Assembly (NCBI GenBank): GCA_017416185.1
Contig: JAFQDF010000012.1
Coordinates: forward strand, 32,965-96,964
Direction of reading: 5' to 3'
DNA length: 64,000 nucleotides
DNA from: Clostridia bacterium
GTDB lineage: Bacteria; Bacillota; Clostridia; Oscillospirales; CAG-272
A model generated the notes under the pieces. It did no database searches. It worked only from the letters and a program-made list of their open reading frames with translations, and had not been told where the DNA came from. Positions 42,342 through 45,300 of this stretch are shown piece by piece (within the stretch, counting starts at the first letter, position 1; each line of letters begins with the position of its first letter). The position numbers and the translations under genes are program-made.

Positions 42342-45300
42342 ATGAACCTCACAAAGAGAGTGCTTGCAGTAGTTATGATACTGGCAATGCTCATCCCAAC
42401 ACTTCCGACTATGCTAACGGCGGCTGACACCGCAACCGTTTTCTTCAATGCAAACGGCGGAAGCGGCGGTCCCGGCAAGGTGACAGCTACGGTCGGTACC
42501 ACTTTAACTGTTCCATCCACCAATCCCACCAAGTCCGGAATGGTATTCCGCGGCTGGGCTATATCGGCAGAAAACGCCGCTATGGGTAACATCACCTATT
42601 CCGCAGGCTCTTCAGTTCAGGTCAAGGGCGACTTGACACTGTATGCAAGCTATGCGTACACCGTAGTGCTGAAATGCGGCAATGAAGGTGCAGGAACCTC
42701 CACAAAGACACTCTACAAGTTCCCCGGAAAGGAGCTTGCGCTCTATCACGATAAAGAATCCGTAAGGGCAAACTACGGTATGTATCCTAAGAATAATGAC
42801 CAGAGATTCTTTATTCAGTGGAACACCAAGCAGGATTCAACCACCTCCAAGGGTACAGGTGTTTCCTACTGGGCTAACTACAATACCAACGCATCTGCCA
42901 CACTTTATGCTATCTGGGGTTACCCCATCAGCTACCACGCCGACGGCGGTGTGTTCCCCAAGACCCAGACAGAGGTATTTAAAGCCTATGTTTGTGATTG
43001 TGATGACAACAACTATCAGAATCCCAAGACCCTTTACGGAAACTTTGATTTTCCCGAGGGATCCAATACCCCCACAAAGGACGGCTGCCGTCTCTATACA
43101 ATGAGCGGTACCGTATTCTACGGACTTCTCTACCCCGATATGAGTTTCTTCACAACAGAGACTGCTCAGCAGAATCTTACCATACCTCCCACAGGCGGAA
43201 AGATGCCTTGGAGTTCCTTCCACACAACCACCAACGAGGACGGCAACTATGCCCCTGAGTTCTATGCTATCTGGGAACCCTCCGTTACCTACAAGGCAAA
43301 CGGCGGTTCAGGCTCTGACGTGGTTGAATGGATAACCTGGGATTGGGGTCCCGTTCACGTATACAACAGCTACAGTGTACGCAGTAACAGCTTCTCCAAG
43401 TCCGGTGCGTCCTTCAAGTGCTGGAATACCGAGCCTGACGGCAGCGGTACTACATACTACCCGGGCTCTGTGATCAATCACAATTCCTCCGACCCCATCA
43501 CTCTTTATGCTCAGTGGTCTGACGGCAGTCACGGTGCACGTGCAGAGAAGAAGTTTATGGTAAGCTTTGATGCCAATGGCGGTATATTCCCTCCTGCGGC
43601 AGTTTATAAGTATTACGGATCTGTTCTCAAGCTTCCCACCACAACTCCTACAAGACCCGGATTTAAGTTTATGGGCTGGTCTACAGATAAGCTCTCCGGT
43701 ACCGTTCAGTACAAAGCGGGCGATAATTACGGTATAGATGCGGTAGAAAGACTCTATGCTGTATGGTCTACATGTACCTCTCACAGCTACACAAAGACTT
43801 CCTCAACTGCTTCCACCTGTACCGCACAGGGTAAGAACGTTTATACCTGTTCTATCTGTAAAGCAAGCTATGACGATTATCTTGACTACAGCCACAGCTG
43901 GGGCAACTGGGTGCCTAACTCTGACGGTACAGAAACCAGAACCTGTACAGTATGCGGTGTGACCGAGACAAGAGTAGCTCCCTGCGTTCACGTATATGAC
44001 GAGGGCTGGGTGACAAAGGAAGCTACCTGTACCGCTTACGGAGTAAAGGTATTTACCTGTACGCTCTGCGGCTCTATGTATAACGAAAAGATAGAAATGC
44101 TTGAGCATTCCTTCACCAACTACGTATCCAACAACAACGCTACCTGTTCTCACGGCTCTACGTTTACGGCTCAGTGTGACTACGGCTGCGGAAAGACGGA
44201 TACATATCTTGATGACTCGACCAAGCTTGAACACGTATTTACAAACTATATTCCGGATGACAACGCAACCTGTATGAACGGAGGTACTGCAACTGCAAGC
44301 TGTGACAACGGCTGCGGTGCTACAGATACAAAGGAATATGACGGTGCTACCATAGGTCATAAGTTCTCTTACTACAGCTACAACAACGACGCTACCTGCG
44401 GTAAGGACGGTACTATGACATCCTACTGTGAATACGGATGCGGTACCACCGATACCAAGATCAAGCCCAATTCCGCTACAGGTGAGCACGTATTCTACGA
44501 TTATATCTCCAACAACGACGCTACCTGTACCGAGGACGGTACTATGACAGCAAAGTGTGAAAACGGCTGTGACGTAACCGACACCATCAAGGACGTGGGT
44601 ACGAAGCTCGACCATGTTTTCACCACCTATACAGACGATAATAACCCCACCTGTACTCACGATGCTACAAAAACCGCATACTGTGAATACGGCTGCGGTA
44701 CTACCGACAGTAAGTATATAGAAGGCACCAAGATAGACCACGTATTTACTACCTACACCTCTGACGGCAATGCTACCTGCCAAAAGGACGGTACAAAGAC
44801 AGCAGAGTGTGATTTTGGCTGCGGTGCTACCGATACGATTACAGAGGAAAACTCCATAGTAGACCACTGGTACACCGACTATGTATACAACAAGGATGCT
44901 ACCTGTACCGAAAACGGCACAGAAACCTCCTTCTGTAACTACGGCTGCGGTGAATCTATAACGATCGAAGCAGAAGATACTGCTCTGGGTCACAAGCTTG
45001 GCGAATGGGTAGAAACAAAGGCTCCTACAAGCGAAAGCTACGGTGAGGAGACCGCTTACTGTTCTGTCTGCGGTGAAGCTGAGATCCGTTATACTCCTAT
45101 GATCGGTACTCCCGAGATCCTTGTCAACAACTATGACGTAAGCATCACAAACGCTGACAAGATCAGCTTTATCAGATACGCAAGCGGTGTTCATACTACC
45201 TCTTCTTCTATCAAGAATGCAGAGGACTGTGTAAATATCGATGCTTCCGTAATCAAGGCTAACACCACCGACGGTGTATACAACCGTCATATGCCTTCGG

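Follow-up and report, generated by a model that had tools for sequence, protein, structure and literature searches.

The closest described relatives of the element treated here are domains of one gut enzyme, the M64 immunoglobulin A (IgA) protease of Thomasclavelia ramosa, which were named ZBD1 and ZBD2 in one report (PLoS Pathog 2025, PMC12237041) and CTD2 and CTD4 in another (PNAS 2025, PMC12415215). Both papers describe, from predictions only, zinc-linked β-sheets that form an extended rod, and both place the Cys/His pockets between adjacent sheets (PMC12237041, PMC12415215). The domains were modelled with tetrahedral Cys/His zinc sites and contain no disulfides in either experimental or predicted structures; three subdomains span ∼110 Å, i.e. 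∼37 Å per unit, and the protease was monodisperse only with a reducing agent (PMC12237041). In small-angle X-ray scattering (SAXS) CTD2 behaved as a fully extended rod (PMC12415215). The C-terminal domains were found to hamper cleavage in vitro, and a distant resemblance of subdomain I to TFIIS was noted (PMC12237041). A wider family beyond the IgA protease is described by neither paper (PMC12237041, PMC12415215), and our literature searches returned no description of the repeat other than these two. Here we analyze an array of related ∼40-residue Cys/His units, hereafter called beads, in a protein encoded within a 64,000-nucleotide stretch of contig JAFQDF010000012.1 from an uncultured gut Clostridia bacterium; this whole stretch is referred to as the window.

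That beads of this kind exist was already known, as they were first noticed in 2025 in the IgA protease. New, as read from the sequences, are the large size of the family, the Cys3His tandem array as its usual form, and a rule by which the ligands of one predicted site come from two neighboring beads. The array of the window comprises 11 beads, and we consider it reasonably probable that these are of the IgA-protease type and form a stiff rod through shared-zinc Cys3His junctions. We infer zinc as the metal, the tetrahedral geometry, the rigidity, and the spacer role.

The bead array and its counterparts in the IgA protease

The beads follow each other head to tail over amino acids 488–932, nucleotides 43767–45101 of the window (residue numbers are those of a 1369-residue open reading frame (ORF); subtracting 12 gives the numbering of the 1357-residue protein). 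A preliminary description of the window had located this region correctly and had estimated ∼13 units. The number is 11, in both the count of C-x(2,3)-C turns and that of significant domains found with a hidden Markov model, and the 13 His residues of the region comprise 11 that anchor the beads and two extra ones. The extra His residues (amino acids 616 and 785) lie two positions after the middle Cys of beads 4 and 8, in C-S-H and C-T-H, and are the only His residues of the region outside the 11-site scheme set out below. Of the 40 Cys of the protein, 33 are inside the bead region, where they make up 7.4% of residues (0.8% elsewhere).

The fixed spacing of three Cys and one His that had been ascribed to every unit is found in beads 4–10, which are 42–43 residues long and read H-x12-C-x9-C-x3-C. 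It does not extend to the remaining four. Beads 1 and 3 (40 residues each) contain four Cys, the additional one in a C-x(1,2)-H motif, and have a C-x2-C turn, while beads 2 (30 residues) and 11 (40 residues) contain two Cys, the middle one being absent. The pairwise identity of beads 4–10 is 54–67% in nucleotides and 36–60% in amino acids, and Tandem Repeats Finder reported nothing in the DNA of the bead region; judged from these values, the units arose long ago and their DNA has since diverged. The preliminary description had also noticed a single bead in another repeat protein on the minus strand. This copy is genuine, and apart from it and the array the motif occurs in no further reading frame of the window.

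The connection to the IgA protease was obtained from profile searches of PDB sequences. A profile of the 12 beads of the window gave one match to a solved structure, 9qa6_A (E 7.7e-4). A family profile of 58 units, which contains no IgA-protease sequence, ranked the same chain, the T. ramosa IgA protease, first among all PDB sequences (E 2.6e-7). The matched stretches, chain residues 861–882, 938–966, and 1103–1132, correspond with the construct offset of +29 to ZBD1 subdomain I, ZBD1 subdomain III, and ZBD2 subdomain III (boundaries from PMC12237041), with E-values of 8.5e-5 and 4.2e-4 for the ZBD2-III and ZBD1-III positions, respectively. The next matches of the 58-unit profile covered the knuckle only and were C2H2 fingers, rubredoxins, and ribosomal or RNA-polymerase zinc ribbons. 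A three-bead profile restricted to three-Cys units found nothing among PDB sequences, so the link to the IgA protease runs through the two-Cys type of bead. In fragments of IgA-protease relatives, the bead type seen here alternates with a shorter His-rich subtype, H-x12-13-HWHEC-S-x(0,1)-C, which explains the His2Cys2 sites reported for the protease and is absent from the window. These relatives have two Cys in each unit, so the 'three Cys plus one His' site of ZBD2 cannot be built from one subdomain; by sequence, this agrees with ligands shared between beads.

AlphaFold2 modelled beads 4–6, from 44 aligned three-bead segments, with a predicted local distance difference test score (pLDDT) of 92.8 and a predicted template modelling score (pTM) of 0.58. 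Each modelled bead consists of a two-residue bridge early in the unit followed by a hairpin of two six-residue strands, the turn of which is the C-x3-C-G knuckle, and DSSP assigned no helix within the beads. The result is a small antiparallel sheet of ∼35–42 residues with a C-x2-3-C hairpin turn, as in the bead class of the IgA protease. Foldseek comparison of the three-bead model with the PDB gave no hit at E≤1e-3 (best template modelling (TM) score 0.26); rods of properdin TSR and fibronectin F1 are among the nearest hits, none of them significant. In BFVD the only matches were two metagenomic 'phage' proteins, both of which carry the same beads. A BFVD model, made independently for a gut 'phage' protein that combines beads with SLH, could be superimposed on all three beads (TM score 0.54 over 126 columns), which suggests that the geometry of the junctions between beads is reproducible in models.

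In both systems, β-sheet subdomains of ∼35–40 residues start with a His and carry a C-x2-C hairpin turn, the Cys/His sites are predicted between consecutive sheets, and the described or proposed shape is an extended rod (by SAXS, for CTD2 only). InlB-B-repeat/Flg_new-like and Ig/Fn3-like domains are neighbors in both cases, and neither has a fold relative in the PDB. The differences concern number, regularity, and context. The protease contains only 3 + 2 heterogeneous subdomains, mostly of the His2Cys2 type, whereas the window array has 11 beads, including seven near-regular Cys3His units with a C-x3-C turn; the protease also has a catalytic head and a sortase anchor, and the bead protein has neither. 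Zinc binding is only predicted in the protease and in the window beads alike.

Distribution of ligand residues between neighboring beads

The preliminary description had placed each site inside one unit. The ligand pattern fits sites shared by neighboring units better. In the predicted structure the strand order reads as up-down-up, so that one end of the sheet carries the His and the turn and the opposite end the middle-Cys loop. The middle-Cys loop thus adjoins the His of the next bead, from which came the idea that the middle Cys of bead n−1 completes the site of bead n. Applied to the window, this rule assigns every one of the 33 Cys of the region and of the 11 anchor His to a site, giving exactly 11 Cys3His sites. 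In beads 2 and 4–11 the donor Cys lies 25–30 residues upstream of the bead's own His. A substitute Cys (C-x(1,2)-H) is present in the array only at bead 1, which has no predecessor, and at bead 3, where it is expected because bead 2 offers no donor. The lone bead of the second protein likewise has a substitute Cys, and both it and bead 11, which has no successor, are without a middle Cys.

The family test of the rule was made with 149 representative proteins. Across their 2803 units, the His was found in 100%, the two turn Cys in 100% and 99%, a Gly in 93%, and the middle Cys in 89%, all of these being upper bounds. A missing middle Cys was most often replaced by Glu (34% of the units that lack it). 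Beyond the ligands, one Gly, and a few Thr/Ala, the residues of the bead surface are poorly conserved. A substitute Cys was present in 6 of 2505 beads (0.2%) when the previous bead had a middle Cys, in 15 of 78 (19%) when it did not, and in 111 of 1088 first beads (10%); this dependence on the previous bead gave a nominal Fisher test value of 1e-56. The middle Cys itself was found in 97% of internal versus 68% of last beads (3e-128). In each of the 48 informative proteins the trend was as predicted (sign test 48:0, 7e-15), and 120 closer homologs showed the same pattern. The between-bead arrangement is thus strongly enriched in the sequences, as a statistical tendency and not as an absolute rule, and it agrees with the description, in both IgA-protease papers, of pockets that link adjacent sheets.

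One further candidate correlation was dropped. Among the 120 closest homologs, His or Glu appeared at position −3 of the turn in units without the middle Cys (Fisher 7.6e-13); in the 149 diverse representatives the frequencies were 12% versus 10%. The compensation at −3 was thus lost in the broader sample, which leaves only the replacement of the middle Cys itself by Glu.

In the mechanism that we propose, one structural zinc ion would be held at each bead–bead junction by a Cys3His site built from both beads. The ligands would be the middle Cys of bead n−1, located in its far-end loop, together with the opening His and the C-x(2,3)-C turn of bead n. Where there is no upstream donor, a Cys located two or three positions ahead of the His would step in as the substitute, and the last bead would provide no donor Cys. 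In this way, shared zinc ions would fasten thin sheets that have no core to one another at their ends, and the array would become one continuous stiff rod. At ∼37 Å per bead, the value of the IgA-protease model, 11 beads would reach ∼40 nm, and the rod would serve as a spacer ('periscope') that holds the Flg_new repeats apart from the fibronectin type III (FnIII)-like domains of a secreted surface protein. The rigid stalk and the spacer role, the former already proposed in the preliminary description, are suggested by analogy, from the SAXS data on CTD2 and the flanking domains of seven homologs. The 'adhesin-like ends' that the stalk was said to separate were not borne out: the flanks are Flg_new repeats and four FnIII-like domains, i.e. 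spacer-type modules, and there is no recognizable anchor.

Several observations weigh against this mechanism. The profile that selects the units rewards His and Cys, which is why the conservation figures are upper bounds, and the sequences are related, so the p-values overstate their independence. Neither a donor nor a substitute Cys is available at 11% of sites; a middle Cys persists in 68% of the beads that end an array and in 71% of those that stand alone; and a substitute Cys is present in only about 10% of first beads. Part of these exceptions arises because the regular expression that defines a unit misses degenerate neighboring units. In the IgA-protease domains zinc is itself only predicted (PMC12237041, PMC12415215). 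The sites of ZBD1 were assigned as His2Cys2 although subdomain I has a middle Cys (PMC12237041), so the donor rule may not apply there. Finally, the bead protein has no LPXTG motif, SLH domain, choline-binding module, or other recognizable wall anchor, and no evident functional head to be spaced.

Alternative readings and other known architectures

That each bead is self-contained, taking all its zinc ligands (the His, the middle Cys, and the Cys of the C-x(2,3)-C turn) from its own sequence, with the linkers as simple tethers, is unlikely. The four ligand residues do recur at fixed spacing within one 42-residue period, and the frequent middle Cys of last and isolated beads noted above would fit such an arrangement. 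The predicted strand positions, however, put the middle-Cys loop at the sheet end opposite the His and the turn, and the substitute Cys co-occurs with the bead's own middle Cys and anticorrelates with that of the previous unit. In the window, self-contained sites would leave beads 2 and 11 and the singleton with three ligands and beads 1 and 3 with five. Both IgA-protease papers, moreover, place the sites between sheets (PMC12237041, PMC12415215).

It is still less probable that the array is more than a passive spacer and serves in binding of host or dietary ligands, in zinc-responsive folding or length (a metal-gated stalk), or as an extracellular zinc store. Zinc regulation was raised as a possibility by the authors of the PNAS study (PMC12415215), arrays reach 84 predicted sites per protein, and the C-terminal domains of the IgA protease affect cleavage in vitro, as described above. 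With no head or anchor evident in the bead protein, the beads could themselves be the functional part. The poorly conserved bead surface nevertheless suits a scaffold more than a specific binding site, and the highly varied partner domains of the family suit a generic spacer. A specific version, which we regard as similarly doubtful, is suggested by the sharing of zinc between two beads and by sheets that have no hydrophobic core of their own: the rod, with 11 sites in the window and up to 84 elsewhere, would fold and stiffen only with zinc, so that its reach would be gated by luminal zinc, with collapse, for example, when the host withholds the metal, and such abundant proteins could in addition form a sizeable extracellular zinc buffer.

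Metal-free mini-domains stapled by disulfides, like those of EGF, TSR, and fibronectin type I, can be considered very improbable: the beads are small, Cys-rich, and extracellular, the nearest non-significant Foldseek hits are of this kind, and the reducing agent needed for monodisperse IgA protease implies that thiols can oxidize, but three Cys per site is an odd number, the invariant His would be left unexplained, Glu takes the middle position in 34% of units without that Cys, no disulfides are present in the experimental or predicted IgA-protease structures, and the hosts, gut and rumen Clostridia, are strict anaerobes of a reducing habitat. Of the zinc knuckle and the disulfide that the preliminary description had offered side by side, the sequences thus favor the former, because three Cys and an essentially invariant His per site form a zinc-type ligand set that is unsuited to disulfides; the Cys-to-Glu swap points the same way. 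The C-x(2,3)-C turn also resembles the knuckles of rubredoxin and zinc ribbons in sequence. For secreted proteins of strict anaerobes, a stiff rod built without disulfides would be a sensible solution.

Beyond the IgA protease, the beads can be compared with four known architectures. Zinc ribbons (such as the TFIIS C-terminal domain) and rubredoxin share with them a three-stranded antiparallel sheet and a Cys-x2-Cys knuckle at a hairpin turn, and weak, knuckle-only matches to rubredoxin, L40e, bL32, and RNA-polymerase zinc ribbons were obtained (E 0.07–0.4). In contrast to a ribbon, a bead has one knuckle, and its other ligands are a lone His and a distant (or neighboring-bead) Cys; ribbons and rubredoxins are intracellular nucleic-acid-binding or redox domains, whereas the beads are extracellular and tandem. 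Assignment to the classical zinc ribbon was rejected, as seven of the 11 beads have one knuckle only and no fold match was found in the PDB; a possible first knuckle, C-x(1,2)-H, is present only in beads 1 and 3 and the singleton. C2H2 zinc-finger arrays are likewise tandem Cys/His units of ∼30–40 residues, and the profiles matched their C-x2-C-G-K knuckle weakly (E 2e-5 to 0.1). They were rejected because the bead order is H...C...C-x2-3-C, with the His first, and DSSP gave no helix. No recognition helix is predicted, and the bead protein is secreted.

Arrays of calcium-binding EGF modules, as in fibrillin, offer an analogy: they consist of small beads, and a metal ion bound between one module and the next stiffens each junction, giving a rod. 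EGF modules differ in having six Cys in three disulfides and calcium bound through acidic residues, as opposed to three Cys and one His per bead site, for which no disulfides are predicted. Disulfide-rich modules in general (EGF, TSR, Fn1) were rejected because each site has three conserved Cys and an invariant His and not an even number of Cys. EGF modules are mentioned in the PLoS Pathogens paper (PMC12237041). A comparison with the G5-E rods of staphylococcal SasG and Aap was made by the PNAS authors (PMC12415215). These proteins are similar in their core-less, single-layer β-sheet modules set end to end into a long rigid Gram-positive stalk and, in Aap, in the involvement of zinc. In Aap, however, zinc bridges two protomers via His/Asp/Glu, whereas the bead sites would be of the Cys/His type, fully coordinated, and confined to a single chain. 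Neither the sequences nor the folds are related, and the DNA of the bead repeats has diverged, unlike that of canonical periscope repeats. The latter, defined by near-identical tandem DNA that permits strains to differ in length, were rejected on the Tandem Repeats Finder result and the nucleotide identities given above.

Genomic context and the wider family

The features of the two repeat proteins are listed in the table.

Table. Positions in the window of features of the bead gene and of the second repeat protein.
Feature	Position	Strand	Remarks
Terminator of upstream gene	42164-42200	+	strong stem-loop, 16 pairs plus T-run
Promoter-like site TTGACA-18-TATAAT	42267..42296	+	12/12 consensus matches, TG extension; after the terminator of the upstream gene
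Bead-protein coding sequence	42342..46415	+	1357 amino acids from ATG at 42342
Signal-peptide-like N-terminus (MNLTKRVLAVVMILAMLIPTLPTMLTAA)	42342..42425	+	judged by eye only
N-terminal Listeria-Bacteroides (Flg_new) repeats, ∼4–5 modules	42426..43766	+	PF09479, E 1.6e-29, 4 stretches
Bead 1	43767..43886	+	substitute Cys (C-T-S-H), middle Cys, C-x2-C turn
Bead 2	43887..43976	+	30 amino acids; His and C-x2-C turn, no middle Cys
Bead 3	43977..44096	+	substitute Cys (C-V-H), middle Cys, C-x2-C turn
Bead 4	44097..44222	+	H-x12-C-x9-C-x3-C
Bead 5	44223..44348	+	H-x12-C-x9-C-x3-C
Bead 6	44349..44477	+	H-x12-C-x9-C-x3-C
Bead 7	44478..44603	+	H-x12-C-x9-C-x3-C
Bead 8	44604..44729	+	H-x12-C-x9-C-x3-C
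Bead 9	44730..44855	+	H-x12-C-x9-C-x3-C
Bead 10	44856..44981	+	H-x12-C-x9-C-x3-C
Bead 11, terminal	44982..45101	+	His and C-x2-C turn; no middle Cys; no bead after it
Four ∼86-residue FnIII-like β-sandwich domains	45111..46145	+	AlphaFold2 and Foldseek; without Pfam model
C-terminal Listeria-Bacteroides repeat	46146..46412	+	TIGR02543 at amino acids 1324–1368
Second repeat protein ORF	9439-12567	-	1042 amino acids
Single bead CTHEWGDW...CTLCGATETREIP	10240..10353	-	amino acids 739–776; C-T-H and C-x2-C turn (C-T-L-C), no middle Cys
Three ∼86-residue FnIII-like domains of the second protein	9442-10218	-	same domain as the four copies of the bead protein

In the ORF list the bead gene extends over 42306–46415 (+), with a GTG start at 42306. 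The true start is probably the ATG at 42342, as indicated by the ribosome-binding site (AAAGGAGA) 5′ of it, by the position of the promoter, and by an independent gene call: two nearly identical metagenome contigs have a gene of 1357 amino acids called at the same place, although they represent essentially one strain. As the terminator of the upstream gene is followed by a perfect sigma-70 consensus promoter with the TG extension, the bead gene looks, from its sequence, independently and probably strongly transcribed. The ∼86-residue C-terminal domains were modelled by AlphaFold2 with a pLDDT of 95.2 as FnIII-like sandwiches (Foldseek TM 0.55–0.63); they have no match in Pfam or among PDB sequences and may be another uncurated family.

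The second repeat protein consists of Flg_new-like repeats, one bead, and, directly after it, the FnIII-like domains, so that in both proteins a terminal two-Cys bead immediately precedes the FnIII-like array. Its Flg_new-like repeats, several of ∼100 residues, are parted by Pro/Asp/Thr-rich linkers, and some copies are almost identical across ∼80 residues (e.g. ...GPTEYGVNVGDFYADIFGETIPQATLEGYVLVGWYLEKYNFTLTDGDVTGGGYYAVAEDSYFVALWEEAPV). Whereas the beads have diverged, these copies look, from their sequence, recently duplicated, and the second protein is thus a better candidate than the beads for length variation between strains. Antisense ORFs of 688 and 891 amino acids, at 43803–45869 (-) and 9823–12498 (+), overlap the two repeat genes and are most likely stop-poor frames opposite compositionally biased repeats, not genes.

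The upstream neighbor of the bead gene (35034–42158, +) encodes a 2374-residue surface protein with five BspA-type leucine-rich repeat (LRR) blocks, SLH domains, CarboxypepD_reg, Big_1, and CHB_HEX_C_1/Fn3_assoc domains, and a (GGS)n linker. The wall anchor missing from the bead protein is present in this neighbor, and elsewhere there are homologs in which LRRs and beads belong to a single polypeptide. Still further upstream are purine and folate genes, and the locus is therefore taken as ordinary chromosome. The FTHFS encoded in the window shares 100% identity with one labelled 'Clostridia bacterium' and 92–94% identity with entries labelled 'Ruminococcaceae bacterium'.

The family to which the beads belong was called unrecognized in the preliminary description. 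This holds for the databases, as no Pfam-A 2025 or NCBIfam r20 model matches the bead region even at E≤1, but not for the literature, in which relatives are described in the two 2025 papers. None of the best 120 homologs has a precomputed Pfam domain on its beads; matches to zf_CCCH_5 and HMBD, in two homologs only, were judged to be chance. With the bead region as query, at least 2455 proteins were found at E≤1e-5 (best 2.8e-110), a figure drawn from only 8000 scored candidates, which speaks against a pattern that arose by chance. The unit profile, searched against 1.84 billion representative proteins, gave 55,582 matches at E≤1e-3, 28,508 at E≤1e-10, and 7,497 at E≤1e-30, of which the last count is the safer one, as the weak tail may hold eukaryotic C2H2 arrays matched through knuckle contact; up to 84 units were matched in a single protein. 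Only a minority of family units (278 of 2593) have the C-x3-C turn.

When one genome per GTDB species was scanned with two consensus peptides, 323 bead stretches were confirmed. Their hosts include Acutalibacteraceae, Oscillospiraceae, Lachnospiraceae, Christensenellaceae, Ruminococcus, and Coprococcus, mostly from gut and rumen assemblies. Two bead-encoding contigs were binned as Bifidobacterium catenulatum and Bacteroides sp., probably through mis-binning, all others being Clostridia. BFVD entries A0A8S5QLF9 and A0A8S5SUG5, which are labelled as derived from gut Podoviridae and Siphoviridae contigs, combine these beads with SLH or LRR domains; they represent either surface proteins borne by prophages or bacterial sequences wrongly labelled as viral. 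The domains that accompany beads in homologs include cohesin, dockerin, SLH, choline-binding repeats, BspA-LRR, a transglutaminase core, and metallo-β-lactamase. Among seven homologs checked, four have LRR, cohesin, or transglutaminase domains N-terminal of the beads and three have SLH domains, choline-binding repeats, or dockerin C-terminal of them; none showed both.

From these searches, the beads are a very large uncurated family of extracellular modules, among the commonest unannotated ones in surface proteins of gut and rumen Clostridia, and tens of thousands of proteins could be annotated once the family is defined. From the between-bead Cys3His rule one can predict the junction that each Cys serves and the way in which an array is capped at its ends; the rule also implies that a single internal bead should not fold alone. 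If correct, it would mean that anaerobes build rigid extracellular rods in a new manner that needs no disulfides. The beads are also relevant to the engineering of therapeutic IgA protease and to how components of cellulosomes and amylosomes and adhesins stand off the cell.

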